From the NCBI GenBank assembly GCA_963767925.1, contig CAVYGB010000008.1:672001-736000 (forward strand): a DNA stretch of 64,000 nt, in the 5' to 3' direction. Of the stretch, positions 4,593 to 41,912 are shown piece after piece. The position numbers were made by a program, and so were the translations under genes. Source of the DNA: an uncultured delta proteobacterium. Its GTDB lineage: Bacteria > Myxococcota_A > Polyangia > Fen-1088. The notes below the pieces were generated by a model, which saw only the letters and a program-made list of their open reading frames with translations, was not told where the DNA came from and made no database searches. Numbering within the stretch: position 1 is the stretch's first letter; each line of letters starts with the position of its first letter.

Positions 4593-4602
4593 CGTTGCGA
4601 AC

Positions 4603-5466
4603 CTAGCGGGCGAGGCGGGAGCGGGCGGCGTGGGCCAGCGACCGCACCGACGGGTCGCGGTCGTGGCGGGAGGCGACGTCCAGCGGCTGGCCGGCCTGAC
4701 CGGCGGCCGCCCCGATCTCGCCGAGGGCCCAGGCGGCCTTGCGGCGCACGGCCGGGCTGTCGTCGGTCAGGAGGCGGTCGACAAGGGCCGGCGCCAGGGC
4801 GGCGGCGGGGGTCAGGCCGCGGGTGGCGCCGAGGGTGAAGACGGCCTCCGCCCGCACCTTCTCGTCGCGGTCGCGCAGCAGGGGCAGGGCGGCGGTGGGA
4901 TCGAGCGGCCCCCGCAGGTCGCGCAGGGCCACCAGGGCGGCGGCGCGCACCGACGCCTCGGGGGCGCCGAGCGCCTGGCGCAGGGCCGGCTGGGCGGCCG
5001 GCTCGCCGATGCGGCCCAGGGCCGCGGCCATGGCCCCGCGGGCCTCGGCGTCGAAGATCGGGTTCAGCAGGCCGGCCGACAGGGGCTCGACCGCCCGGGG
5101 GTAGCGCAGGCCGCCCAGCACGTCGGCGGCGTTGCGGGCCTTGATCGAGTCGGGCCGGGCCAGGCGCTTCACCATGTCGATGAACAGCTCCGAGCGCAGG
5201 CCCCGCCGGGCCAGCCACCAGCCGGCCACCCGCCGCACCCGGGCGTCGGCGTGATCGATCAGCGGCCGCACCATGGTCACGCAGGCGCTGCACACCAGGC
5301 GCTCGGCCCGCTCCAGCTCGGCGCTGATGGCGTCGACCGAGGTCGATGCGATGGCCCGCCGGATCGCCTCGGCGCTGGAGCCGCGCCCGGCCCGGGCCGG
5401 GGTGGGCAGCGCGACGAGGAGACCGAGGGCGAGCAGGGCGGGGACGGCAACGTTGCAGTGGCGCAT
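4603..5466 (-). CDS. Exported HEAT-repeat protein with CxxC
   Basis: ATG at 5466 after AAGGAG; signal peptide ending PARA; CSAC motif; repeated VRxxAAxALG helical units. Confidence 0.85.
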   Translation of the reverse strand: MRHCNVAVPALLALGLLVALPTPARAGRGSSAEAIRRAIASTSVDAISAELERAERLVCSACVTMVRPLIDHADARVRRVAGWWLARRGLRSELFIDMVKRLARPDSIKARNAADVLGGLRYPRAVEPLSAGLLNPIFDAEARGAMAAALGRIGEPAAQPALRQALGAPEASVRAAALVALRDLRGPLDPTAALPLLRDRDEKVRAEAVFTLGATRGLTPAAALAPALVDRLLTDDSPAVRRKAAWALGEIGAAAGQAGQPLDVASRHDRDPSVRSLAHAARSRLAR

Positions 5467-5519
5467 GGAGAGCTCCTTCCGGTTCACGGGTGTCGACTGG
5501 GGGTTGGTCGCCGGGCGGG

Positions 5520-7710
5520 TCACGGGGTGGCTCCCTTGTTCTCGCGGAAGAAGTACTGGGCGCCCATGTCGAGGTTGAGGATGATCCGGTAGTACTCGTC
5601 GGCGGTCAGCTCCTGGCCCCCGACGTCGCGGGGGTGGACGGCGCCCTCGAACGCCCGCACGTTCGGGTCGACGGTGGGGAAGCGCTGGGGCGGGTTGAGC
5701 TTCTGGATGAGGGCCGACCGGCGGGCGTGCCCCGGCGTCACGTACGACGGCATCCCCTCGGGGCTGATGATGTCGACGTCGTTCTCCCCGAGCTCCATGT
5801 CCAGCCCCAGCAGCGACACGTACGAGGCGGGGTAGTCGTAGTCCTGGCGTTCCCCCACCGTGAGGGCCACCGGCTGCGCCCGCAGGTCGAAGGTGAAGGT
5901 CTGCATGGTGCCCAGAGTGCTGTCCATGATGGTGTAGCTGCGGTTGCCCGCTTTGCTGGCGTCGCCGTCGTGGCAGCTGACGCACTTGCCGTCGAAGATC
6001 GGCTGGATGGCCAGGTTCCAGGGCACGCCCCGGATGCTGCTCGTAGCCGAAGTCCATCGAGACGCGCTCGGCGCGCGGCACGTCCAGGTTGACCGGGCCC
6101 GAGCTGCGCCGCCATCGGTGCTGCCGGGGGCGATGAGGGTCGGCTTGGCCCGGTCCTCGTGGCAGCCGCCGCAGGTGCGCTGCTCCCCCGGCGCGGCCGC
6201 TGATCCAGACGTCCTCGGTGGCCACCGACGAGGGCGAACTTGTCGATGAGCTGCATGTGCAGGGGGACGTTGGCCGGCACCCGCGCCGAGAAGGAGCCGT
6301 CGCTGTAGACCGGCACCTCGCCGTAGCGAGACTGGCCGTCGAACTCGGTCAGGCCGAACATGTCGGGGAAGCCCTCTTCGGCGGAGAAGCCCTCGAGCAG
6401 GCGCACCTTGGCCACCGAGCCGTGGGGCACGTTCTTGACCAGGCTGCTCTCGTAGACGTTGAGCGCGCTCAGCACGAAGCTCTGATCGGCGCCGGGGGCG
6501 GCGGGCGACTGGGTCACCGGCGGCTCGCGCCGGGCCTTCAGCGGGCGGGCCATCACATCCCAGCGCTCGGGGTCGTCGAACAAGCGGATAGCGGCGGCCG
6601 GTCGCCCCGTCCCACTGGAAGAGGTAAAGACCGAAGTTGGGCTTGGTCTGGGCCATGGCGAGCAGCGACGACTCCACCGGGCCATCGGCCCAGGAGGTCA
6701 GGAACTTCAGGTCCTTCGGATCGCCGATCGGCTCGGCGTCGTAGTAGCGGCCGATGCCGGGATCGGAGGGGATGCGATCACCGGGCACCTGGCGGGTCAT
6801 GTCGGTCACCTCGCGACAGCCGCTCGGCCTCGTGCAGGTCGACGAGCAGCAGCTTGCCGGCCTGCAGGGTGTTGTCGCGCGAGGTCGCCACCGTGACGAC
6901 GCGGAAGGTGTCGCGGCCGGAGGCGCCAGCGAGGGTGTCGACGTGGCGGGCCTTGAGGTAGCTGTTGGTGACCCCCCGCTCCTCGCCGCCGAAGGCCTCC
7001 CGCATGCCGGTCATGTCGGTGTTCATGAGGCGCAGGTGGCCGTCGTTGATGTCGCCCAGGTGACGCCACTCGGTGTACAGGACGTTGCCGTCGGGCAGCA
7101 GGGCGGGGGCCACCCGGTGCGAGACGTTGCGCGGCCCCAGCACCTCGCCGCTGCCGTCGACGTTGATGGTGCCGACCTGGGCGGTGGTCTGGCGCTCGTA
7201 TTCGTCCTGGAACTGCTTGGCGCCCGGCCTCCACCGACTTGGAGGTCGTGAACAGGATGCGTTGCCCGGGCAAGAAGATCGGGTACACGTGGTCGTAGCG
7301 GCCCCTCGGTGATCTGGCGCGGGTTGGACCCGTCGACGTTCAGCAGGAAGAGCTGGTAGTGGGCGTCGTCCTTGCGGCGGGCGGCGATGCACGATGGTGC
7401 CCGCGTCGAAGGAGAGATCCCAGGACATGATGTCGGCCTCGGCGAACATGGGATCGCCGGTCAGCGTGGTGAGGCGCCCGTCGGCCGAGGGGGGCTCCAG
7501 CTTCACGAGGCGCGCGCCGGGCTGGTAGCTCGTGTAGTCGAAGACGTTGCCCACCCCGTCGTTGCGGGCGGCCCGCTGCAGGAAGATGATGGCCCGCACG
7601 TCCTCGGGGATGCCCGGGCTCGACGACTGCGACTCGACCGTACATGAGCTGAGAGACGGCGCGAGGGCGGACAACAACGCGGCGGCCGGCAGAGCGCTTC
7701 TGAGCTTCAT
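5520..7710 (-). CDS. Hydrazine synthase alpha-like diheme lipoprotein, broken by about 10 apparent +1 frameshifts
   Basis: Lipobox LSSC; stitched frames give propeller repeats, [20 protein letters not shown]...[11 protein letters not shown] and [13 protein letters not shown]; no in-frame stops seen in the stitched path. Confidence 0.75.
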
Positions 7711-30518: not shown

Positions 30519-32444
30519 TCAGTCGAGGGTGGGCCAGGACAGCAGCAGGGTCTTCCGGAGCACGGTGGGCTGGGTCTGTCCGGGCGGGGGGCTCTGGTCG
30601 ACGATCTCGTAGACCTCGAAGCTGGTGATGCGATCTTCGGGCCGGCCGGTGCGGCGGTGGTAGGCCTGGATCCAGTCCGAGAGGGGAGGGTGGTAGGCGC
30701 CCTGGCCGGCGATCCGCTGCATGTAGTCGCAGAAGTATTCGTCCTGGTTCAGGTACTCGGGGATCACGCTGGTGGGGGCCGGCGCCACCCGGCTGCCCCG
30801 TTCGTTGAGGGGGTCGACGTGGCGGCCGTCCGAGGTGACGGCGTCGACGAAGATGTTGTGGTCCTCGGTGGGGGCGTTGGGGGCGAACATGCTCCAGCCC
30901 TGGAACAGCCGGGGGTATTCCACGACCATCCGCATCCAGAGGGCCTGGCCCAGCTTGAGGCTCTCGGGCACCGCCCGGTTCTCCATCAGCACCTGGCTGC
31001 CGAGGGCGATCATCAGCAGGACCACGCCCACCTCGCGCACCCGGCTCGCCTGCAGGCGCCACCAGCCCCGCCAGGGGGCCTCCGGGGCCGGGGCGACCGG
31101 GGAGGACCCGTCGAGGGCGGTCCAGCCCAGCCAGGCCGACAGCGGACCCCGCCCCCGGGCGACCATCCGGTAGAGCCGCTCGAGCAGGGCGCCGAGCAGG
31201 GGGGCTCGCAGGAGGAGGGCGATGGGCCGGCCGAAGGGGACCGCCGCGAAGGCGGAGGCCAGCGCCCGCCGGCCCTGCAGCCGCTTGCCGCCGTCCTCGA
31301 CGATCAGGTCGGGCTCGGACCGTCCGGGGGCGAAGCGGAGCTGCTGGTAGCGGTCCAGGCGGGCGAGGACCCGGGCGAGCGCCAGGCACACGCCGCTCGT
31401 CTCGTCGATCACGACTCGCCGCACGCGCGCCACCCGGGGGGCGAACCGTCGGGCCAGCCGATCCCAGTCGCGGTCCGGGATGAGCAGCAGGAAAAACCCG
31501 ATCATGTTGAAGGAGAACAGCCCCAGGTTCAGGAGGGCGGCGAAGCCGAGGTGCAACCCGGTGATGAGGACGACGGCGAGCCGCCGGCTGGTCCGCCAGC
31601 CGAAGGGGTTGAGCACCAGCAGGGGCGCCAGGGCCTCGAGGGCGAGCGAGGCATAGCTCATGACCTGCGAGAGGGTCGGAGTCAGGTGCGGGCGGATCTT
31701 CCAGCCCAGCCAGGTCACCAGGCGATCCTGGTGCAGGGCATAGTGGACCGCGCTGCCCTCGCTCCAGGTCTCGCCGCCCTTGTGGACGACGTTGAAGTAG
31801 TAGATGAGGCTCACCTGCAGCAGGAGGGCAACCACGGCAAGAGAGACCACCGGCCGGGTCTCGAGCGGCAGGTCGTCGCGCCGGTCGAGGTCGGCCAGCG
31901 TCCGCTCCCGCCGGGCCCGCAGGCTGGCCCGCAGCGAGTCGATCGAGAAGCGCGCCCCCATCGGCAGAAACAGGGTCCAGGTGCACAGGATGTTGAGGAC
32001 GACGTCGCCCCCGTTCTCCAGGAAGATCACCCGGTCGTGCAGGCTGACCAGGCAGAGCAGGCTGAGGGCGTGAAACAGGCGGGTCCGGTAGCCGATGAGG
32101 AAGCAGAAGAAGACCAGCCCGCAGATCCCGAACAGCACCGCCACCTCGGCGGTCCAGGACGCCCCGAAGAAGAACGAGAGCTGATACTGGGCGCCTGGCC
32201 GCCAGAGCAGGGTGTGGTTGGGGAGCAGCCCGCTGTTCGTGTACCAGATCTGCAGATCGGGGACCCGCCGGAGCAGGTCGGCCAGCAAGAGCAGCCCGAG
32301 GTAGATGCGGCCCAGGCCCAGGCTGCGCGGATCGAGCGCCAGGTACCGCTGGGTAAAGGCGGGAAAGCGCGCGGCGAAGCGGGCCAGCAAGGGGGGCGTC
32401 GTGCTGGCGCTCGTCACGGGCGGGCCCCCATCCCCGTTCCCCAC
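30519..32444 (-). CDS. HTTM-domain membrane protein with internal DCC/DUF393-like domain
   Basis: DPRSLGLGRI, LP.GARFSID, HKGGETW..G.A, QGWSMFAP; VIDETSGVC insert. Confidence 0.78.
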   Translation of the reverse strand: MGNGDGGPPVTSASTTPPLLARFAARFPAFTQRYLALDPRSLGLGRIYLGLLLLADLLRRVPDLQIWYTNSGLLPNHTLLWRPGAQYQLSFFFGASWTAEVAVLFGICGLVFFCFLIGYRTRLFHALSLLCLVSLHDRVIFLENGGDVVLNILCTWTLFLPMGARFSIDSLRASLRARRERTLADLDRRDDLPLETRPVVSLAVVALLLQVSLIYYFNVVHKGGETWSEGSAVHYALHQDRLVTWLGWKIRPHLTPTLSQVMSYASLALEALAPLLVLNPFGWRTSRRLAVVLITGLHLGFAALLNLGLFSFNMIGFFLLLIPDRDWDRLARRFAPRVARVRRVVIDETSGVCLALARVLARLDRYQQLRFAPGRSEPDLIVEDGGKRLQGRRALASAFAAVPFGRPIALLLRAPLLGALLERLYRMVARGRGPLSAWLGWTALDGSSPVAPAPEAPWRGWWRLQASRVREVGVVLLMIALGSQVLMENRAVPESLKLGQALWMRMVVEYPRLFQGWSMFAPNAPTEDHNIFVDAVTSDGRHVDPLNERGSRVAPAPTSVIPEYLNQDEYFCDYMQRIAGQGAYHPPLSDWIQAYHRRTGRPEDRITSFEVYEIVDQSPPPGQTQPTVLRKTLLLSWPTLD

Positions 32445-32459
32445 CGGATCATCGGGCGG

Positions 32460-33197: not shown

Positions 33198-33297
33198 CGG
33201 CGGGATGTTAAAGGAAAGGGATCCGGCTGCCAACCCCGGGGGACCCGGGTCGAGGTTGGCGCGCCGGCCGGTCCAGGGTTTTGCTAAAAAGGGGCGC

Positions 33298-35589
33298 TTG
33301 TCGGTCTCCCCCGGTTTCCTCCTCGAGCTGCTGAGCCGCTACGCGAAGGCTCTCTCGGACGCGCGCTGGCTCGCCGCCATCGCGCTGACCGTCACCCTGG
33401 CCCTCTCGGTGCTGGCCGCGGCGCGCGTGCTCCGGCGCATCAGCGGCTACCGCCGCGCGCTGGTGCTGGTGCTGCTGGCCGGCGGCGCCCTGTGGTGGGC
33501 CTGGCAGCTCAAGTGGCTGTGCGACGACGCGTATATCTCCTTCCGCTACGCCGACAACTGGGCCCGCGGGCAGGGGCTGGTGTTCAACGCGGGCGAGCGG
33601 GTGGAGGGCTACACCAACTTCCTCTGGACCGCGTTGATGGCCGGCTTCATCAAGCTCGGCGCCGACCCGGGCCAGGCCGCCATCGTGGTGGGGCTGGCCT
33701 GTTTCGTGGTCATGCTGCTGCTGCTCGATCGCCTGGGCAGCCGCCTGGGCGCCCAGCGCGGGCAGGGGGGGATTGGTCTGGCCCCCTTCCTGGCGGCCGC
33801 CAGCTACACCGTGGCTTCGTTCGCCACCTCGGGCCTGGAGACCATGTTCGCCGCCACCCTCGCGCTGCTGGCCGTAGAGCGGGCCGAGGCGGGGCGCCCG
33901 TTCGTGGCCGGGCTGGCCGGGATCGCCGCGGCCATGGCCCACCCCGACCACGGGATCTTCTACGCCGCGCTCGGCGCCGCTCTCGCCCTGGGGGGCCGGG
34001 ATCGCCGCCGCGAGCTGATGATCTACGCCGTCCCCTTCTTCGTCTTGTTCGTGCCCTATTTCTTCTGGCGCTGGCGCTACTACGGCGACCTCTTCCCCAA
34101 CACCTACTACGCCAAGTCGGCCGGCGAGACCTACTTCCGCCAGGGCGGCGTCTATCTGGTCGTCACCACGGTGGTGGCCGGGCTGTGGGCCGCCGCGCCC
34201 CTGGCCCTGATCGGCGCTTACCGCTTCCGGGGCACGGTCACCGGGCGCTGCTTCATCATCGGGCTGCCCCTGTTCCTGGTCTACGTCGCCAAGGTGGGCG
34301 GCGACTTCATGCTCGGGCGCCTGCTGGTCCCGGTGATCGCCCTCGTCGTCCTGTTCGCCGACCTGGGCTGGCGCGAGCTGCAAGCCCGGCGGCGCCCGGT
34401 GCTGGCGGGCGGGCTGGCCATGCTGGCCGCCCTGGTGGCGGTGCCCGCCCAGGCCATCCGCCCGGGTGAGAAGATCTGGAACCTGGCCGACGAGCGCACC
34501 TTCTACCCTCTGCAGAAGTTCGATCCGCCCACCGTGGGGGTCATCTACACCGAGCAGGCCAGGAGCCTGAAGGCCGCCCTCGAGCCGCGCGGCCTGCGGC
34601 CCAAGGTGGCGGTCGGCTGCGTCGGGATCGTCGGCTACCACACCCGCCTGCCGATCTTCGACCTGTTCGGGCTGACCAGCCGCAGCGTGGCCCACATGCC
34701 GATCCCTCACCGGGGCCGGCCGGGGCACGAGAAGCTCGGGACCATCGGGCACGTCATGGCTGCCGGCGTGGATCTGTCGGAGTTCGCGCTCTACCCGCCG
34801 CCCTTCGCCAGCCTGACCACCGTGCAGATCGGCGCCTTCACCTATCACCTGGGCCGTTACGATGCGCCGCTGATCCGCGCGCTGGCCGGCGCCGCCACCG
34901 TCGCCGACCTGCCGGCGTACCTGGCGTCATTGGGGCAGCAGACCGAGCCGGTTGCGCCCGAGACCCTGGCCTGCGAGATGTGGTTCCTCGAGTCGTACTA
35001 TTTTTCCAGGAACCCCGATCCGCCGACCCGCCAGACCCTGATCGATCGCGCCCTGCGCTGGGACTCGACCCTGCGGGGGCTCGAGCCGCTGCTGTTTTCC
35101 TCGCAGCCGCTCGAGGCGTCCGGCTACCAGCCGCTGCGGCGCTTCTCCTTCGAGCGCCGCGAGCCCTTCGTGACCACCGGCGAGGCCTTCGCCGGCTGGC
35201 CCTCCGAGGCGTCGGTCCCGGGGCAGGGCGCCGTCTACGGCAACCACGGCCGCTTCATCAACAGCTTCCGGCCGGGGTCGACCGACAGCGCCCGGGGCCT
35301 GCTCAGGCTGCCGCCCTTCGCCGTCCGGGGGGACGTCCTCTCCCTGCTCATCGGGGGCGGTCGGGACACGAAGAACCTGCGGGTCTCCCTCATCGTCGAT
35401 GGCCAGCCGGTCCGCCAGGTCACCGGCTGCACCAGCGAGGTGCTGGGGCGGAGGTTGTGGAACGTGCGCGACTACGCCGGCCGCACGGCGCACATCGAGA
35501 TCCTCGACGACAGCGCCGGCGGCTGGGGCCACATCGTCGTCGACGAGATCACCGAATGGCGCGCCCCCCCGGCGCCGTCCGGCCCGTGA
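33298..35589 (+). CDS. GT-C type membrane glycosyltransferase (AftB-like) with C-terminal beta-sandwich domain; start approximate
   Basis: DDAYISFRYA...GLVFN.GERVEGYTNFLW, SGLET, YYGDLFPNTYYAK, PGHEK; multiple TM helices. Confidence 0.78.
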   Translation: MSVSPGFLLELLSRYAKALSDARWLAAIALTVTLALSVLAAARVLRRISGYRRALVLVLLAGGALWWAWQLKWLCDDAYISFRYADNWARGQGLVFNAGERVEGYTNFLWTALMAGFIKLGADPGQAAIVVGLACFVVMLLLLDRLGSRLGAQRGQGGIGLAPFLAAASYTVASFATSGLETMFAATLALLAVERAEAGRPFVAGLAGIAAAMAHPDHGIFYAALGAALALGGRDRRRELMIYAVPFFVLFVPYFFWRWRYYGDLFPNTYYAKSAGETYFRQGGVYLVVTTVVAGLWAAAPLALIGAYRFRGTVTGRCFIIGLPLFLVYVAKVGGDFMLGRLLVPVIALVVLFADLGWRELQARRRPVLAGGLAMLAALVAVPAQAIRPGEKIWNLADERTFYPLQKFDPPTVGVIYTEQARSLKAALEPRGLRPKVAVGCVGIVGYHTRLPIFDLFGLTSRSVAHMPIPHRGRPGHEKLGTIGHVMAAGVDLSEFALYPPPFASLTTVQIGAFTYHLGRYDAPLIRALAGAATVADLPAYLASLGQQTEPVAPETLACEMWFLESYYFSRNPDPPTRQTLIDRALRWDSTLRGLEPLLFSSQPLEASGYQPLRRFSFERREPFVTTGEAFAGWPSEASVPGQGAVYGNHGRFINSFRPGSTDSARGLLRLPPFAVRGDVLSLLIGGGRDTKNLRVSLIVDGQPVRQVTGCTSEVLGRRLWNVRDYAGRTAHIEILDDSAGGWGHIVVDEITEWRAPPAPSGP

Positions 35590-35708
35590 AGCGCCGGGTT
35601 CGTGTGATCCCGGCTGCGGCGGTCGACGATTTTCGAAGAAACCAGGGGCGCAGCGGCGTCGTATGAAGCATAGGAGGCTCGTGGCGGTTGGCTGACCCGA
35701 GCTCGACC

Positions 35709-35897
35709 ATGCGAAAAGAAGAGGACTCCCAGCTTCCCTCTCTCAAGGGGATGGTTACCGAGGCGGACTTACCGCTCGCGGAGGAGACGTGGCCAGGGCT
35801 GCGCGACTTCCTCCGCCGCATCCCCTCGAACCAGCGCCCCGCGACCTTCCTCGACCTGGTCTGGCGCTTCGAGTGCTGGCGCAACCGCTTCGCCTGA
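35709..35897 (+). CDS. Small hypothetical protein
   Basis: 62-codon ORF with protein-like composition in an otherwise empty gap. Confidence 0.5.
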   Translation: MRKEEDSQLPSLKGMVTEADLPLAEETWPGLRDFLRRIPSNQRPATFLDLVWRFECWRNRFA

Positions 35898-35907
35898 AAA
35901 ACCCTCT

Positions 35908-36072
35908 CTAGTCCCCTGGAACGGTGAAGGCTTGCATATGTCGGCGAGGCATCTTCGTTCCTGGCAAGGCGCGAGGAGGGCGAATACCTGGCGTATTTAA
36001 CCGACGAGCAACGCAGCCAGGGACGAAGAGGACCGGCGAGATATGCAAGAAATCACCGTTCCAGGGGACTAG
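35908..36072. mobile_element. MITE-like long inverted-repeat element (a structured RNA is an alternative)
   Basis: Perfect 20-bp inverted repeat CTAGTCCCCTGGAACGGTGA / TCACCGTTCCAGGGGACTAG with further nested stems; CTAG at both ends. Confidence 0.6.
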
Positions 36073-36851
36073 CAGGGGCCGCCGCTCATGCAGGCGGCGC
36101 CGGAGACCCGCGTCACGCAGGTGGTGGTCGTCAAGGTGACCGGGCCCAGCACCCGGCTGGCGCCGCTGAACACCGAGAGGGTCGCGGCCGATCGGGCGGG
36201 GGGCACCGTCCTCGTGTCCGGACCGGTGATCTCGTAGCGGCGGCCGCCGGCGTTGATCACCAGCTTGTCGGTGCAGTTGTGCCGCGAGCCCATGTAGAAG
36301 GTCGGCGAGTTGATCTGCGCCTCGTCGCTGATGCAGACGTTGGTGCCGTCGACCTCCAGCGCCAGGCGGTAGGGCAGCCAGCCGTAGGTCCCGGAGGTCC
36401 CGATCCGTCCGTCCGTCTCGAGGGCGATGCGCAGGCGCACCTTGCCGTCGGCGCTCACCTTGGTGGCGATCTGATAGCTGTCGCGGCCCATCCGTAGCCC
36501 GGCGAAGCAGGTGTCGAGGCCCGGGCTGGCGTTGCCGCCATCGCCGGCGGCCGCGTCGGCGGGCCGGCTGTCGGGACCCCGGTCGGGGCGGGCGTCGCCG
36601 GGCCGAGCATCGGAGCCGCCGCTGCCGCCCGCGCCGGCCCCGCCGCCGGTACCGCCCGTGCCGCCGGCACCCCCCCTGCCGCCGCTGCCCCCCGCGCCGC
36701 CACTGCCGCCCCGGCCTCCGGCGCCGCCGGACCCACCCGCCCCGCCGCCTCCGCCGTCGGGCGTGGGCTGGGGATCGGACGGGCAGCCGGCGAGGAGGAG
36801 AGATCCGGCGAGCGACAGGCAAAGGGTCCAGGAACGCAGGGGATGGTTCAT
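36069..36851 (-). CDS. Lipoprotein with Gly-rich linker and Cys-containing C-terminal domain
   Basis: Lipobox LAGC; GGAGGSGG repeats; GGAGG SD; 16 bp downstream of the dikinase-like gene. Confidence 0.75.
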   Translation of the reverse strand: MNHPLRSWTLCLSLAGSLLLAGCPSDPQPTPDGGGGGAGGSGGAGGRGGSGGAGGSGGRGGAGGTGGTGGGAGAGGSGGSDARPGDARPDRGPDSRPADAAAGDGGNASPGLDTCFAGLRMGRDSYQIATKVSADGKVRLRIALETDGRIGTSGTYGWLPYRLALEVDGTNVCISDEAQINSPTFYMGSRHNCTDKLVINAGGRRYEITGPDTRTVPPARSAATLSVFSGASRVLGPVTLTTTTCVTRVSGAACMSGGPC

Positions 36852-36867
36852 CGAGGCCTCCAGGGGG

Positions 36868-39054
36868 TCAGGGCGCGGGGTAGGGGCGCGCCTGCTTGAT
36901 GACGACGCGGTCGTCGGCGGTGAGCTTGATCTCGAGATCGAGGCTCAAGCTCGGGATGTGGGGGTAAACAGCGCTGGCGAAGTGGTCCTGCACCAGGAAG
37001 AGGAGGCCGCCGAGCTCGCGCAGGCGCGCCTCGCTCCAGAGCGGCTCGGGCGACAGCGAGGAGGGGACCAGCACGCGTGCGTCTGCGACCTGGTCGCCGG
37101 CAGCGCGCCGGAAGGTGAGGGTCTCCGCCACCACCCCGGGGTCGGGCGGGCGGACCACGGGCTGCCCATCGCGCTGCGAGACCAGGCGATAAAGCGGCCC
37201 GGCCGGGCCGGCCTCGAGCTGGGTGACCGCCACGCTGTCCAGCTTCTCGAGCACGAACGACGGGTTGACCGCCACCCCCATGAAGGCCTCGCGGTGGTTC
37301 ATCCCCCAGTACTCCCGCTCCTCGAAGGCCCGCTCGGTCCAGAGGCTGGCATAGACCCGCTTCAAGGCCCGGGCCACCGTCCGCTCCTTGCCGAGATCGC
37401 TGGCCAGGTCGTCGATGATCTCGACCAGCCAGATCCGGTCGGGATGGGCCGTCCACTCGGCCCGCCGCCGGGCCAGCTCGGGCTCGAGCCGCGCCCGCTC
37501 CTCGGCCGACAGACAGGCCGATGGGCCCTTGTCGTCGGCGTCGGCGTCGTCCGCGAAGCAGCCGCGCGCCGAATCATACAGGCCGGCGCCCGTGGCCAGC
37601 TCTCCGTCCTCGACGTTGCTGCTGCTGCGGAAGCGGGTGGGCAGGCGGGCGTGATCCGCGCCGAACGCGATCCGGGCGGTGGCGGCCAGCCGCTCGATCA
37701 GCCCGGACTCGACCGGCGCCGCCTCGATCGCCTCGCGCACGGCCGCCAGGCGCGCGCGCCGGAAGGGCGCCTCGGTGGCGGTGCGCGGGTCGTCCAGGAG
37801 CGCGAGGACCTGGGCCTCGAGGCCGCTCGCGCGCAGGAAGTCCCGGTAGGCCGAGAAGGGGACGGCGAAGCCCGGGGCGCGGTTGGCGGCCGGCAAGAGG
37901 CGATGGAGCTCCCCCAGGTTGGCCGCCTTGGCCCCCACCGTCAGGGCGTCCGCGGCGCCGAGCTCGCCGAACGGACGGACCCGCGTCTCGGTGAGATTGG
38001 AGCGCAGCGGCCGCGGCGGGGGGCGCCTGGACGCCCAGAACGCCTCCGCCTCGGCCAGCGTCGCCGGCTGCAGGCGGGCCTCCGTCTCCGATACGGTCAG
38101 GCGCGCCACCTTGCCGTCGAGCAGGGCGACAACCTGGTCCTCGTAGACGCTGGGCAGCCGGGCGTTGGGGATCTGCTTTTCGCGCAGCCGCAGGTTCACG
38201 TGGCTGTGCGGGCTCTGAGGCAGGGCGGTCACCAGCCCGGCCACCAGGCGCAGGTCATCGAAGGATCCCTGGGTCACCAGGATGTCGCGGGGGCCGTAGT
38301 CGGTCGGCCGCTCGGTCCGGGGAATCAGGCGGAGGAAGCCGTACGCTTCACCGAGGCTGTAGCCCTCGGCCCCGGCGCCCGGCCGCAGCGTCGCCGGGTC
38401 GGCCACCTCGATGCCCCGGGCGCGCAGGGCCGGGGCCAGCGCGGCGAAGCTCGCCACCTGCCGGGGATCGGCGCCCACCAGCACCAGCAGCTCCCGGGCG
38501 AACGGCGCGCATTCGCCCAGGCGGCCGTGGAGCTCGGCGAGCTGGTCGACGCCGAGGGTCTCGCTGGGATCGGCGTAGACGAAGGTGGCCACCACCCCCC
38601 GCTGGCCAGTGCGCGGGTGCTCGGCCCCGGGGATGAGCTGCAGCTCCCCCGCCCACCAGACACGGCTGGCGCCCTTGGTTGTCAGGGCGATGTAGCTGTC
38701 CCAGTCGATGTGGGCCAGCGCCGGGAAGCTGCGCAGGAAGGCGAGGTGCAGCGGGTAAAGGCCGGTGTTCTGGAAGAGGCAGCGTCGATCGAGGGGCGGC
38801 GGCGCCTCCCGGCCGGTGACCTCGCCGAGGTACTTCACGGCCCAGCCTTCTCCGGCCAGGCGGGTGAAGTCGTCGCTGCTCGCGAGCCGCTCCAGGAAGT
38901 TTGCGCTGCCGCCGTCCGGCGCTGCGTCGGGGTTGCTCCCGCTCCCGCCGCCGCAGGCCGCGAGCCCCACCGCCACGAAGGCGAGGGCGAGCGCGAGCGC
39001 GACCGGCCAGCCGCCGCGGGCCGTGGAAATCTGAGAGTGCGAGCGAGGAGGCAT
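36868..39054 (-). CDS. Lipoprotein with phosphohistidine swivel domain and PPDK_N ATP-grasp domain (dikinase-like)
   Basis: Lipobox LAAC; SHVNLRLREKQIP; GAKAANLGEL; RFRSSSNVED...GAGLYDS; DLEIK...IKQARP. Confidence 0.82.
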   Translation of the reverse strand: MPPRSHSQISTARGGWPVALALALAFVAVGLAACGGGSGSNPDAAPDGGSANFLERLASSDDFTRLAGEGWAVKYLGEVTGREAPPPLDRRCLFQNTGLYPLHLAFLRSFPALAHIDWDSYIALTTKGASRVWWAGELQLIPGAEHPRTGQRGVVATFVYADPSETLGVDQLAELHGRLGECAPFARELLVLVGADPRQVASFAALAPALRARGIEVADPATLRPGAGAEGYSLGEAYGFLRLIPRTERPTDYGPRDILVTQGSFDDLRLVAGLVTALPQSPHSHVNLRLREKQIPNARLPSVYEDQVVALLDGKVARLTVSETEARLQPATLAEAEAFWASRRPPPRPLRSNLTETRVRPFGELGAADALTVGAKAANLGELHRLLPAANRAPGFAVPFSAYRDFLRASGLEAQVLALLDDPRTATEAPFRRARLAAVREAIEAAPVESGLIERLAATARIAFGADHARLPTRFRSSSNVEDGELATGAGLYDSARGCFADDADADDKGPSACLSAEERARLEPELARRRAEWTAHPDRIWLVEIIDDLASDLGKERTVARALKRVYASLWTERAFEEREYWGMNHREAFMGVAVNPSFVLEKLDSVAVTQLEAGPAGPLYRLVSQRDGQPVVRPPDPGVVAETLTFRRAAGDQVADARVLVPSSLSPEPLWSEARLRELGGLLFLVQDHFASAVYPHIPSLSLDLEIKLTADDRVVIKQARPYPAP

Positions 39055-39158
39055 CGAAAGAGCTAGGGTTGGAGATCGCGGAGAACGGGTATCACGGGGA
39101 GCTTGCAACGATGTGCCACCCGCCCGCCACCTTGTCGTGATCGGATGACGCAAGAGCC

Positions 39159-39701
39159 ATGCCGCTGACCGCCTTGTTCCTCCTGACGCTCGCCGCGCAG
39201 GCGGGTGGTGCCGAGCTGCGCGGCGCCGACCGCGCGCGGAGCGAAACGGCCGGGCTGGCCCTGGCCGTGGAGGCGGGGCGATACGGTGGCGGGTACGGCC
39301 TCGACGCGCTCTTTTACCTCCCGGTGGCCGCGCTGCTGCCGGGGGCCGCCGCGTTGCCGGTGACCGTCTGGGTCCAGGCCGGCGCGGGCGTGTCGGGCCA
39401 GGTGCCGCGGGCGCTGGCCGCCGGGGCCAGCCTCGGCGCCAGCCTGGGCCGGCGGCATCGCGCCACCGCGGCCCTGGGCTGGGGGGCCATCGACCGTTCG
39501 GTCCTTTCGCTGCACGGGACGGTTGTGGCCGATCGCTCGCTCCACGGTCCCGACGCCGCGCTCGGATACGAATACCTCTCCGACCGGGGGCTGCTGTGCC
39601 GGGCGCTGGCCGGCGCGGCCTATCTGCCTCGATCCTGGCAGGAGACGTTGGCCCGGTTCCGGCCGACCCTCAGCGTGGCCTTCGGGTGGAAGCTCTGGTG
39701 A
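39159..39701 (+). CDS. Exported protein, possible small outer-membrane beta-barrel
   Basis: Signal peptide; alternating amphipathic strands; ends LSVAFGWKLW. Confidence 0.55.
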   Translation: MPLTALFLLTLAAQAGGAELRGADRARSETAGLALAVEAGRYGGGYGLDALFYLPVAALLPGAAALPVTVWVQAGAGVSGQVPRALAAGASLGASLGRRHRATAALGWGAIDRSVLSLHGTVVADRSLHGPDAALGYEYLSDRGLLCRALAGAAYLPRSWQETLARFRPTLSVAFGWKLW

Positions 39702-41035
39702 GCCGGAGGCGCCGGCCGCTCGGCGTTTTGGCCCTGGCGCTGGCCCTGGCCTCCGGGGCCTGCGCGCCCGAGCCTCCCTGTGGCCTGCGCCTGTGCGACA
39801 TCCGCGAGCCGGCCTGCCAGGACGAGGTCGCCAGCGCCACCGCCTGCCTGCGCGGGCTCCCGACCGCCGAGGTGCCGATCCGGGTGCTGTCGCAGGAGCG
39901 GTACCTGGCCGAGTCGATCGCGGCCGGCGAGGGGAACGTCGACTTGCCCCTCTTCACCCGCTGGATGGCGGGCCTGGCCCTGCTGCGCCTGGCCGCGCCC
40001 GACGTCAGCGTCGCCGAGGCCTCCCAGGAGGGGGCGGCCTGGGTGGCCGCCTTCTACGATCCGGGGACCCGGAGCATCACCATCATCGACCGCGGCCGGC
40101 CGCTCGACGCCCGCGGCGCGATCACCCTGCTGGTTCACGAATACACCCACGCCCTGCAGGACCGCACGGTGGGGCTGGACCGGTTCCGGGCGCGCCTGCC
40201 GAACGACCTCGACCGCGTGCTCGCCTCGAAGGCGGTCACCGAGGGGGAGGCCAGCCTGGTCGAGGACCTGGCGGCGCTCGGCCTGTTCGGCGAGGCGGAG
40301 CGGGCGATCGACTGGCCGCAGGTCTTCGGGACCTGGCAGGGGCGCGCCCGGGAGGCGGCGGTGGAGACCCGGCTGCCTGTCGATCAGTCGTTCGGCCACT
40401 TTCCCTATCCGTTCGGGATGCCCTACGTTCATGGGGCTTACCGCTCGGGAGGGTTCGCCGCCGTCGACCGGCTCTACGACGAGCCGCCGGCCTCGGTGGC
40501 GCAGGTGCTGGCCGGGTTCGGCACCGCCGAGCCCTCCGGAGGCGCCTGGGCCGAGGAGCTGGGAGCCGATGCGGTGCCGGTGTTGCCCGAACGCTTCGCC
40601 CTGGTCGACAGCGACCGCCTCGGCGCCTGGCTGCTCGAGGTCTTCGTCGACCGGGTGCTGGCCTCGGCGCCCCCCGGGCTGGATCGCGATCGGGCCCGCG
40701 CGGATCTCGCCGGCCTGGGGCGCGGGCTGCGGGCGGATCGCCTGAGCATCTGGCGCGATCTCCAGACCGATCGCACCGTCGCCTGCTGGCGCCTGCGGCT
40801 GGCCTCGGCCGAGCAGGCCGACCGGCTCGCGCACCACCTGGACGGAGCGGGACCCTGGGTGGCCTCGTCGCGAGAGCGGGACGTGGTGCTGGTGGCCAGC
40901 GCCGACCCGGAGGTGCTCGCCCTGGCGGGTCCGGATCTGACCTTCGGGCCGCTGCCGCCAGCGGGGGTGGCCCTCGCCGGGGCGGCCCTCCCGGCCCTCG
41001 CCCGGGGTTGTCCCGGCCGCACCTTCGGACACTGA
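39698..41035 (+). CDS. Zincin-like metallopeptidase lipoprotein
   Basis: GTGA overlap; lipobox ASGAC; HEYTHALQD and downstream EGEA. Confidence 0.75.
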   Translation: MSRRRRPLGVLALALALASGACAPEPPCGLRLCDIREPACQDEVASATACLRGLPTAEVPIRVLSQERYLAESIAAGEGNVDLPLFTRWMAGLALLRLAAPDVSVAEASQEGAAWVAAFYDPGTRSITIIDRGRPLDARGAITLLVHEYTHALQDRTVGLDRFRARLPNDLDRVLASKAVTEGEASLVEDLAALGLFGEAERAIDWPQVFGTWQGRAREAAVETRLPVDQSFGHFPYPFGMPYVHGAYRSGGFAAVDRLYDEPPASVAQVLAGFGTAEPSGGAWAEELGADAVPVLPERFALVDSDRLGAWLLEVFVDRVLASAPPGLDRDRARADLAGLGRGLRADRLSIWRDLQTDRTVACWRLRLASAEQADRLAHHLDGAGPWVASSRERDVVLVASADPEVLALAGPDLTFGPLPPAGVALAGAALPALARGCPGRTFGH

Positions 41036-41138
41036 CGGCAGACCTCCCGAACGACCTGTGCCAGCGATCGCGCTGGCAGAGTTCGTAACAATTGTAAGTA
41101 CTTTACGCGTAACGCGTCCCCATGACACAGTACGCGCC

Positions 41139-41912
41139 ATGTTGAGAAAAGTCCTTGGCACCGTCCTTCTGCTCTCTGTCGCGGGAGTGGCTTGCGACGA
41201 CGACGATCCGCCGCGTCCCCGCGATGCCAGCGCCGACTCCCGGCGCGACTCCGGAACCGACGCCCGCGACGGCGCCTCGGATCGCATGCCGGATACCCGC
41301 CTGCCGGACGCTGGCGCGGTCGATGCCCCTGCCGTCGACGCCCCCGCGGTCGACGCCCCCCCGGACACCGCCAGCGATCGCCCGGCCGACACCGCGGTGG
41401 ATGCGCCACCCGACACGGTCCCGGCCGACACCGCGCTGCCCGACACCGCGACTCCGGACACGGCACTCCCGGACACGGCGCTGCCCGACACCGCCCCGCC
41501 CGACACCGCTGCGCCGGACACGGCGATCGACACCCTCGCGCCCGACACGACGCCCGCCGATGCCCAGCCCTTCGAGCCGCTCAACGGGTGCACGGACGAG
41601 GCCGACTTCGAGGACGCGACCGACGAGGACCAGTTCTTCCTCGACTGGGCCAACGACTTCGCGGACCCGATCTGCATCAAGATCCGGGCCGGCACCGCGG
41701 TGGTCTGGGGCGTGGCCGACGGTCAGACCTTCGCCACCCTCCCGGTCGCGAAGTTCCCCGCGGCGCCGCCCAGCCCGATCACCGGCAAGAACACCGCCGA
41801 CGGCGAGCCCTACGAGGTCGAGTTTCCCAACCCCGGCACCTTCGGCTTCCACTGCCCACTGAACGCGGGAACGATGGAGACGATGGCCGGCGCCGTCTGG
41901 GTCGTTCCCTAG
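41139..41912 (+). CDS. Lipoprotein with acidic DTA/PD repeat stalk and degenerate cupredoxin domain
   Basis: Lipobox GVAC; PICIKIRAGTAVVW...FPNPGTFGFHC...MAGAVWV. Confidence 0.72.
   Translation: MLRKVLGTVLLLSVAGVACDDDDPPRPRDASADSRRDSGTDARDGASDRMPDTRLPDAGAVDAPAVDAPAVDAPPDTASDRPADTAVDAPPDTVPADTALPDTATPDTALPDTALPDTAPPDTAAPDTAIDTLAPDTTPADAQPFEPLNGCTDEADFEDATDEDQFFLDWANDFADPICIKIRAGTAVVWGVADGQTFATLPVAKFPAAPPSPITGKNTADGEPYEVEFPNPGTFGFHCPLNAGTMETMAGAVWVVP
41310..41565 (+). repeat. Degenerate 15-nt coding tandem repeats (VDAPA / PDTAL / PDTAP)
   Basis: Recurring CC(G/C)GACAC(C/G)GC units. Confidence 0.75.

Follow-up and report, generated by a model that had tools for sequence, protein, structure and literature searches.

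The locus and its two lipoprotein genes

The window, a stretch of 64,000 nucleotides from the genome of an uncultured member of the Myxococcota, carries two genes on one strand that code for predicted lipoproteins, here gene A and gene B. The following features were assigned:

36868..39054, minus strand: gene A, dikinase-like lipoprotein with predicted export (P0001), 728 aa and stop codon
38953..39054, minus strand: lipoprotein signal peptide, residues 1-34, lipobox LAAC with Cys34, read from the sequence
38377..38907, minus strand: N-domain, residues ~50-226, alpha/beta, family-specific, presumed acceptor-binding, from model and conservation
38020..38376, minus strand: phosphohistidine swivel domain, residues ~227-345, from VIA-align, Foldseek and hhalign
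38200..38202, minus strand: codon of His285, the predicted phospho-carrier, from conservation and alignment
36871..37992, minus strand: C-terminal PPDK_N-type ATP-grasp, residues ~355-728, Pfam PF01326 with E 1e-16
37384..37560, minus strand: clade-specific insert in the ATP-grasp, residues 499-557, from the alignment
36852..36867, minus strand: spacer of 16 nt between the genes, with GGAGG ahead of the gene B ATG, from the sequence
36069..36851, minus strand: gene B, lipoprotein of 260 aa (P0002) with lipobox LLAGC, a Gly-rich linker and a 150-aa C-terminal domain with six Cys

The reading frame of gene A stays open upstream to a TTG at 39153; the start was placed at the Met at 39054 because the N-termini of the homologs support it. 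All motifs quoted in the sequence-only reading are present in the translation. Judged by sequence and predicted structure, the product consists of a lipoprotein signal, an alpha/beta N-domain, a phosphohistidine swivel domain and a C-terminal PPDK_N ATP-grasp. The sole Pfam match covered residues 372-596 (PF01326). A pyruvate-binding barrel had been reported as absent, which agrees with the lack of a PEP-utilizers_C match (PF02896) in the Pfam search and with the end of the protein straight after the ATP-grasp.

The gene B product had no Pfam or NCBIfam family, and a scan for promoters and terminators between 35500 and 39700 detected neither. Gene B had been proposed to encode a possible partner of the dikinase. 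The adjacency of the two genes is confined to the closest relatives: gene B adjoins a dikinase ortholog only in G001, G012 and L002. Another dikinase subfamily is accompanied by a different Cys-rich lipoprotein, and BLAST revealed no similarity between this protein and the gene B product. Eight close loci presented no conserved enzymatic neighbour, no common theme and no phosphate-starvation genes beside the gene; genes of aromatic catabolism were found neither near gene A nor in these eight loci. Secreted CotH-type kinases and LTD proteins adjoin some family members.

Export signals and domains of the protein family

The N-terminus of the gene A product starts with positive charges, followed by a hydrophobic helix and an acidic linker; in the predicted model a helix spans residues 18-33 and a disordered linker residues 34-46. 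The charged N-region, hydrophobic core and lipobox Cys of an SPase II lipoprotein were all present, and lipidation is predicted. For counts of conservation, 117 full-length homologs were aligned with MAFFT, namely the 120 family proteins minus three shorter than 650 aa. The lipobox column held a Cys in 112 of the 117. A signal-peptide heuristic was positive for 91 of the 118 close homologs, as well as for 102 of the 140 representatives and 86 of the 112 long forms, but for none of 13 cytoplasmic RPH- or PEPS-like controls. Homologs mostly without signal peptides would have spoken against export; overwhelmingly, they have export signals. Both paralogs in the same genome are lipoproteins, and T9SS tails were carried by L031 and by 3 of 41 family representatives. 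In the mature protein the alignment revealed four conserved cysteines (Cys92, Cys182, Cys499 and Cys514), consistent with disulfides.

The family is large. A profile of the N-domain and His-domain matched end to end in 1153 clusters (50 % identity, E<=1e-30) from many phyla, including phyla not known as predators and monoderm lineages; identity among the homologs listed is 45-81 %. Within the family, fusions to domains of extracellular type (dockerin, FG-GAP, fn3, cadherin and LTD) were observed, as well as fusions to sulfatase, GH20, SusE and F5/8-C domains, the latter hinting at a polymer or glycan setting. In giant members the dikinase core is internal; one of them, P0419, is fused to a purple-acid-phosphatase/metallophosphoesterase module, and some are located among hydrolases. 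Signal peptides, lipoboxes, T9SS tails and extracellular-type fusions are distributed across the family, therefore export appears to characterise the family as a whole.

The assignment of the region around the motif SHVNLRLREKQIP (residues 284-296) as a phosphohistidine swivel domain was borne out by structural comparison. VIA-align gave a Z-score of 12.0 to Enzyme I and likewise 12.0 to the swivel of RPH (residues 765-867; rmsd 2.6 Å over 98 residues, 24 % identity), and 9.3 to the carrier domain of PPDK; Foldseek also matched the N-half model to RPH. His285 opens a helix (residues 285-292) in the model and aligns with the catalytic histidines of PEP synthase and RPH-like proteins. A variable His would have counted against the assignment, yet His285 was retained in 117/117 homologs and Ser284 in 116/117. 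Among the ORFs of 80 loci, His285 was present in 78, the exceptions being a contig-end fragment and a frame-split gene.

The ATP-grasp motifs GAKAAN (374-379), RSSSNVED (476-483), GAGLYDS (489-495) and QARP (721-724) follow downstream. Lys376, Arg476, Gln721 and Arg723 were each retained in all 117 homologs; together with Glu708 they were retained in the same 78 locus ORFs as His285. The family profile matched PEP synthase 8a8e in the ATP-grasp with E 1.9e-30, and Foldseek aligned the ATP-grasp to RPH 5hv1 with E 1.9e-13. By sequence and model, the domain is homologous to the ATP-grasps of PEP synthase, RPH and PPDK. Both structural marks of the superfamily are thus present, the PPDK_N ATP-grasp residues and a beta/beta/alpha swivel domain with the His at a helix start; the proposed order, a swivel domain upstream of an ATP-grasp with intact motif residues, stands. 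The insert at residues 499-557 begins with an acidic loop between Cys499 and Cys514 (C-x-A-D-D-x-D-x-D-x-x-G-P-S-x-C), in which both cysteines as well as Asp502, Asp505 and Asp507 were found in 117/117 homologs. This segment is missing from PEP synthase and from a sister family of ~980 aa.

The N-domain was modelled as an alpha/beta fold of ~180 aa with six strands, in blocks of pLDDT >90. Pfam and Atlas gave no match, the Atlas search returning one unnamed cluster (0.78), and a PDB sequence profile yielded only noise at E 0.25. Searches with the N-half model in Foldseek and VIA-align gave match lists filled by the swivel domain. All of 54 diverse members compared have His103, and at least 90 % of them retain Arg131 and Gly136. 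The domain is presumed to bind the acceptor, with His103 as a candidate catalytic and Arg131 as a candidate phosphate-binding residue.

Comparison with characterised dikinases

To the extent that the sequence can tell, gene A belongs to a large, unstudied family as a member with predicted export; the kind of enzyme is already known, the exported variant appears to be new. A full-text literature search found no account of an exported dikinase. The earlier observation of an exported dikinase-like lipoprotein as such was confirmed from sequence, domains and conservation.

Two reports describe GWD and PWD as composed of a substrate-side domain, a His domain and a C-terminal PPDK_N ATP-binding domain, without a PEP/pyruvate barrel (PMC13553574, PMC11986951). 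This domain order is common to GWD1/PWD of plants and algae (EC 2.7.9.4, 2.7.9.5) and the gene A product, and in both the link between the preceding domain and the His domain is short. The GWD ATP-binding domain resembles best that of RPH (PMC13553574), as does, by Foldseek, that of the gene A product. The central domain before the His domain in StGWD1 is all-helical, with 20 helices in 440 aa (PMC13553574), whereas the corresponding domain here has ~180 aa and an alpha/beta fold. A starch-binding module CBM45/CBM20 as in GWD/PWD was not found in the gene A product (Pfam, E<=1), and GWD is a plastid enzyme, in contrast to the predicted exported lipoprotein. Among family members, 9 of 44 and 8 of 41 proteins gave sub-threshold matches to the GWD1_pHisD profile (PF22973) across the His region, the best with E 0.0014 and 0.00097, respectively. 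The cut-off of this profile is 27 bits; the four matches that were inspected reached 14.6-18.7 bits. The gene A product itself had no GWD1_pHisD match in the Pfam search. In searches for longer relatives, all proteins listed were bacterial family members and none bore the name GWD, a result weakened by word-based crowding, and among the matches of the PDB sequence searches was no sequence of the catalytic part of GWD. The proposed likeness to glucan, water dikinases thus holds for the order of His domain and ATP-grasp. Judged by profile and description of GWD, the sub-threshold matches give no more than a hint of a specific kinship, and the N-domain differs.

The rifampin phosphotransferase RPH-Lm (PDB 5HV1, 5FBS and others) was the best structural match to both catalytic domains. 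RPH presents the order ATP-grasp, rifampin-binding domain and swivel, which is reversed in the gene A product. In hhalign comparisons of RPH-like proteins with the N-half, the swivel domain alone aligned; a central rifampin-binding domain was thus not found, and the RPH family NF041857 scored 37.7 bits against a cut-off of 999. Unlike the gene A family, the RPH-like proteins carry no export signal (0/13). PEP synthase (PpsA) and PPDK share with the gene A product a homologous ATP-grasp, an aligned carrier His and, presumably, the chemistry of the partial reactions. Their ATP-grasp, however, comes first and a PEP/pyruvate TIM barrel is present, while the gene A product is permuted, barrel-less and predicted to be exported; its NCBIfam score was 59.7 bits against a cut-off of 598.

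A similar layout is found in the uncharacterised bacterial family of ~980 aa (P0147-P0167) with PF00391 before PF01326. Its His domain passes PF00391, and it is colinear with the gene A product over His domain and ATP-grasp (hhalign probability 99.9, E 3.9e-37). It is also export-like by the signal-peptide heuristic (17 of 20), but has an unrelated N-terminal region of ~470 aa and lacks the 499-557 insert. Split small-molecule dikinases carry the His-bearing part and the ATP part on separate proteins. The ATP-grasp subunit HpeI (PDB 9GOJ) of this group, which includes phenylphosphate synthase and HpeHI, was among the top matches (sequence E 4.4e-7, Foldseek E 8.0e-12); the parts that are separate there are fused in gene A into one chain with predicted export.

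Possible function outside the cytoplasm

The reading we prefer, with slightly better than even confidence, is that gene A encodes a Sec/Lol-exported histidine-swivel dikinase of three domains, an acceptor-side N-domain, the swivel and the ATP-grasp, whose activity is predicted. The ATP-grasp would bind a nucleoside triphosphate with Mg2+. His285 of the swivel domain would attack the beta-phosphate, with release of AMP and transfer of the gamma-phosphate to water. The swivel domain would then pivot to the N-domain and pass its phosphate to a hydroxyl group of an extracytoplasmic molecule. We infer the activity, ATP as donor and the acceptor; our guess for the acceptor is a polymer of the cell envelope or the cell exterior, for example a glycan. 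Extended to the family, the proposal is tentative: bacteria of many phyla may export a GWD-like enzyme that phosphorylates an extracellular or envelope polymer at the expense of extracytoplasmic ATP or another nucleotide. The polymer could be a matrix polysaccharide, extracellular DNA or, e.g., an insoluble glycan.

The supply of ATP is the difficulty, as we know of no ATP pool outside the cytoplasm. The search for a TLC ATP/ADP translocase was negative in the source genome (84 % complete), with no signal from the control genomes either, and in all seven related genomes with the ortholog, and none of the nine polytopic membrane neighbours in 80 loci is such a translocase. Prey lysate had been suggested as the source. 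This idea is not specific, because monoderm lineages and phyla without known predators also carry the family.

Water could be the only acceptor: an extracellular scavenger would convert stray ATP to AMP and two phosphates and harvest phosphorus or nucleotides at the cell surface. Dikinases transfer the gamma-phosphate to water in any case, the giant P0419 is joined to a phosphatase module with other giants among hydrolases, and the Pfam search of the gene A product revealed no carbohydrate-binding module that could serve as acceptor-binding module. We regard this as unlikely, however, since water alone would hardly account for a third domain that is conserved and has an invariant His and an almost invariant Arg, far simpler apyrases and nucleotidases already do such work, and phosphate-starvation genes do not adjoin the gene in the eight close loci.

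Decidedly unlikely is the use of another donor outside the cell, pyrophosphate or polyphosphate, or a reverse reaction that takes phosphate off a phosphorylated polymer. PPDK-type enzymes can run their partial reactions in both directions and accept PPi or Pi in the same site, and the translocase searches found no ATP supply route. The nucleotide-side motif residues common to PEP synthase and RPH are nevertheless invariant, which argues for a nucleotide ligand, and the reverse direction calls for extracellular AMP, which is at least as hard to account for.

ATP would be plentiful if the lipoprotein were passed to another cell, by myxobacterial outer-membrane exchange or vesicles, and acted in the recipient cytoplasm with the adjoining lipoprotein as helper or protector. 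The gene A lipoprotein is encoded in a Myxococcota genome and a small lipoprotein gene adjoins in two subfamilies, but such a delivered effector is very improbable: the family is conserved rather than polymorphic, the core is internal in giant proteins and not a C-terminal toxin tip, the members are spread over many phyla with adhesin-type fusions and T9SS tails, and the neighbouring protein is itself predicted to be exported. That the export signal was misread and gene A codes for an ordinary cytoplasmic small-molecule dikinase is barely credible; all characterised dikinases are, to our knowledge, cytoplasmic or plastidial, but the conserved lipobox Cys and N-terminal layout, the relatives with T9SS tails and dockerin, fn3 or cadherin fusions, the conserved Cys pairs and the export-negative controls stand against it.

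ATP-dependent phosphotransfer is treated as cytoplasmic, and the periplasm and the cell exterior are taught to be free of ATP. The present family, with more than 1000 sequence clusters, has a complete and strongly conserved ATP-grasp and phosphohistidine apparatus, and yet is predicted to be exported. If the family is active, there would be a usable nucleotide outside cells, a fold with a new donor or a new delivery route. The family has cultured carriers in Maribellus sp. YY47 and Ferruginibacter sp. HRS2-29, therefore the question is directly testable. The family may also bear on the origin of the permuted GWD/PWD architecture. Plant starch phosphorylation loosens crystalline polymer surfaces; the polymer-phosphorylating reading, if true, would describe a bacterial counterpart of this process and imply an unrecognised extracellular ATP economy, possibly common to the CotH-type kinases and LTD proteins beside some members.

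Domain architecture of P0001

The window has a G+C content of about 72 %. The genes of the dikinase-like lipoprotein P0001 and of its neighbor P0002 are located among the following open reading frames:

30519-32459 (-): 646 aa, HTTM (vitamin-K-carboxylase-like membrane domain, E 2.1e-7) and DCC1-like thiol-disulfide oxidoreductase domain (E 1.5e-5)
33205-35589 (+): large polytopic membrane protein, ~790 aa, C-terminal part soluble; no Pfam match at E<=0.01
36069-36851 (-): P0002, 260 aa, beginning 16 nt downstream of the P0001 gene with GGAGG ahead
36868-39054 (-): P0001, 728 aa, frame open from 39153, start Met at 39054
39596-41035 (+): 479 aa, hydrophobic-plus-Cys N-terminus, HEYTH (HExxH-type) motif, no Pfam family; may be an unclassified exported metalloprotease
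41058-41912 (+): 284 aa, short Asp/Thr/Ala/Pro-rich repeat runs (DAPAV, PDTA-like units), then a C-terminal domain; no Pfam family

The start Met at 39054 agrees with the N-termini of the homologs. All motifs cited in the sequence-only reading were found at their positions in the P0001 translation, and the claimed lack of a pyruvate-binding barrel was borne out: Pfam detected PPDK_N alone (residues 372-596, E 1e-16) and no PEP/pyruvate barrel. NCBIfam provided partial matches only, far under the cut-offs, and a PDB sequence search yielded matches confined to the ATP-grasp of PEP synthases.

An AlphaFold2 model (mean pLDDT 89.6) was obtained with 78 of 120 family proteins as input. Foldseek matched its C-terminal half to the ATP-grasp domains of rifampin phosphotransferase (RPH; 5hv1, E 1.9e-13), HpeI (9goj, E 8.0e-12), PEP synthase (2ols, E 4.2e-11) and PPDK (1kbl, E 6.6e-7). 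A second model of residues 50-352 (mean pLDDT 95.1) was based on the window and 53 of 80 related loci, those with an alignment to P0001 beginning by residue 100. Its residues 178-282, which are residues 227-331 of P0001, aligned structurally to Enzyme I (Z 12.0, rmsd 2.7 A, 97 residues), the RPH swivel domain (chain residues 765-867; Z 12.0, rmsd 2.6 A, 98 residues, 24 % identity), the extra C-domain of Bacillus pyruvate kinase (Z 11.1) and the phosphoryl-carrier domain of PPDK (Z 9.3); the Foldseek matches for this model were consistent with these alignments. His285 was aligned by the family profile to the catalytic His of PEP synthase, with a weak second domain match, and to the His of RPH-like proteins (hhalign E 0.0014). 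The family is colinear across the His domain and the ATP-grasp with a bacterial family of ~980 aa (hhalign probability 99.9, E 3.9e-37), in which the His domain passes Pfam PF00391 ahead of PF01326. With structural and sequence matches of both domains and this colinear family, the proposed order of swivel domain and then ATP-grasp is real.

The N-domain (residues ~50-226) is a confident alpha/beta domain in the models; searches against Pfam, PDB sequences and the Atlas revealed no match. In 54 diverse members His103 was invariant, and Arg131 and Gly136 were each kept in at least 90 %.

StGWD1 is described with two CBM45 modules, an all-helical central domain of 440 aa, a His domain (His992) after a four-residue link, and an ATP-binding domain that aligns best to RPH (PMC13553574); PPDK_N is C-terminal in the plant glucan dikinases GWD and PWD (PMC11986951). 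P0001 has the same domain order and an RPH-like ATP-grasp, but a CBM is absent and its His domain is preceded by a domain of another fold class. Pfam GWD1_pHisD (PF22973) had no match to P0001. It matched 9/44 and 8/41 family members (PF00391: 1/44 and 1/41); four inspected matches were over the His region with 14.6-18.7 bits versus a cut-off of 27. A related bacterial cluster in the Atlas has PF22973 on 15 % of its members. These observations are a lead towards GWD kinship, short of a demonstration. P0001 is placed in the dikinase superfamily, outside the GWD family.

Conservation and extent of the family

Two hundred eighty relatives were obtained in a word-seeded search at E<=0.001. The best 120 of these had identities of 45-81 % and sizes of 489-785 aa; source names, where given, were Polyangia, Polyangiaceae, Sandaracinaceae, Bradymonadales, Myxococcota and unclassified Deltaproteobacteria. 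Three proteins below 650 aa were left out, thus 117 full-length proteins were aligned. The proposed carrier His285 was kept in 117/117, as were Gly374, Lys376, Arg476, Glu482, Asp483, Lys720, Gln721, Arg723 and Pro724, while Ser284 was present in 116 and the lipobox Cys34 in 112. Cys92, Cys499 and Cys514 were each kept in 117/117 and Cys182 in 111/117. An invariant acidic loop between Cys499 and Cys514 opens a 59-residue insert that is missing from PEP synthase and from the ~980-aa sister family.

A genome scan revealed at least 585 relative-encoding stretches among at least 603 pattern matches. The best 80 loci were labelled Myxococcota, Planctomycetota, Verrucomicrobiota, Bacteroidota, Fibrobacterota, Dehalococcoidia, Terriglobia, Latescibacterota and an Acidimicrobiia-type lineage. 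Seven of them (L030, L032, L048, L053, L063, L065, L075) came from one Planctomycetota chromosome, suggesting that paralogs have expanded greatly there; six encode forms of ~1800 aa and L065 a form of 1070 aa. FG-GAP/VCBS and dockerin domains were present on ~1800-aa proteins of this 9.18-Mb contig. The carrier His together with Lys376, Arg476, Glu708, Gln721 and Arg723 was present in 78/80 ORFs. The exceptions were L010, a fragment at a contig end, and L031 (6083-8628 (+)), whose gene is split across two frames directly ahead of a T9SS sorting tail, either by a frameshift or by an assembly error. In an exhaustive HMMER search with a profile of N-domain plus His domain, the number of cluster representatives was 3267 at E<=0.001, falling to 2409 at E<=1e-10 and to 1153 at E<=1e-30; of the best 150 of the 3267, most matched the profile end to end. 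From the residue conservation and these end-to-end matches, the three-domain core is a constant unit of the family. In the metagenome protein P0177 (1937 aa), a single chain comprises, in this order, a PEP-utilizers domain, a low-molecular-weight phosphotyrosine-phosphatase domain and PPDK_N.

Export and gene neighborhood

Export had been proposed for P0001, and its homologs agreed: nearly all close homologs have a hydrophobic stretch followed by Cys, and distant members have signal peptides or lipoboxes. A crude heuristic (11-residue window with a mean Kyte-Doolittle hydropathy >=2.0 within the first 70 residues, Lys/Arg just ahead; only proteins beginning with M, V or L scored) was positive for 91/118 close homologs, 102/140 unbiased representatives, 86/112 long forms and 17/20 proteins of the ~980-aa sister family, and for 0/13 cytoplasmic RPH/PEPS-like controls. 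Many of the negatives shown had truncated starts, with the hydrophobic stretch and Cys still present. A T9SS sorting domain was found in 3/41 representatives and forms the tail of L031 (PF18962, E 3.9e-8). Among the domains on long forms are FG-GAP/VCBS, dockerin, fn3, cadherin, Ig and Lcl_C, and fusions include two sulfatase domains (P0352), a GH20 hexosaminidase (P0394) and a metallophosphoesterase with a purple-acid-phosphatase N-domain (P0419). The genome of the window encodes two paralogs, both predicted lipoproteins, one of which also bears an LTD domain (PF00932, E 6.3e-15). A mis-read export signal is one rival explanation; as judged from the sequences, export is a trait of the whole family.

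Neighbors of the P0001 and P0002 genes are the HTTM/DCC1 protein, an F5/8-C protein, an SLT-LysM transglycosylase and a polytopic membrane protein that has no assignment. Neither terminator-like nor sigma-70-like sites were found in 35500-39700, therefore co-transcription of the two genes is plausible. Three orthologs have a P0002-like gene beside them: it lies downstream in the same-genus genome G001 (contig end) and in G012, whose ortholog is 59 % identical to P0001, and upstream in L002. Apart from L002, tblastn found none in the 80 loci. In the ortholog-bearing genomes G004, G005, G006 and G030 the P0002 C-domain had no match at E<=1e-8; G004 matched in the linker region only. The Gly-rich linker that follows the lipobox of P0002 is common in its own genome: most of the 26 matches there span only residues 10-115, and two dozen or more further predicted lipoproteins have this linker.

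A Cys-rich lipoprotein unrelated to P0002 adjoins the dikinase gene in 5/80 loci, and in one more, L018, it is no further than 1.4 kb away. This Cys-rich lipoprotein, which has a Gly linker, follows own-genome paralog 1 (687 aa, lipoprotein) at L095 ~5330-6490 (+) on contig C10, and its homologs are beside or near dikinase genes in L018, L021, L023, L052 and L057. LTD-domain proteins are encoded within 6 kb in 8/80 loci, Pfam-confirmed in L006, L012, L024, L025, L027 and L028 and by clustering only in L031 and L046. In L012, an Akkermansiaceae MAG, a 1375-aa LTD and CotH kinase protein (1862-5989 (+)) ends one base ahead of the open frame of the dikinase homolog; this locus thus pairs two folds that use ATP, each of them apparently exported. 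The neighbors of eight close orthologs had no shared functional theme.

Nucleotide source and proposed function

The ATP/ADP translocase PF03219 was not found in the genome of the window (84 % complete), nor in 14 control genomes; it was present in 9/31 related genomes. Among seven genomes with an ortholog at E<=1e-40 (G000, G001, G004, G005, G006, G012, G030; 84-100 % complete) 0/7 had a match, and none of nine polytopic membrane neighbors in the 80 loci was a TLC protein. Therefore, the nucleotide source in the present clade is unexplained by a PF03219/TLC translocase in the genomes and loci searched. The family includes members labelled Dehalococcoidia and Acidimicrobiia-type. Since these lineages are monoderm, a periplasmic ATP pool cannot be the general answer for them. 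Further rival explanations are nucleotide scavenging with water as sole acceptor, a different donor or a reaction that runs in reverse, and the delivery of P0001 into another cell. In a full-text literature search of main texts, no publication about an exported dikinase was found. The best-supported reading of sequences and models is that P0001 would be a histidine-relay dikinase acting outside the cytoplasm, with the N-domain as putative acceptor site. Because of the fusion partners in the family, a surface or extracellular polymer is the most natural guess for the acceptor.
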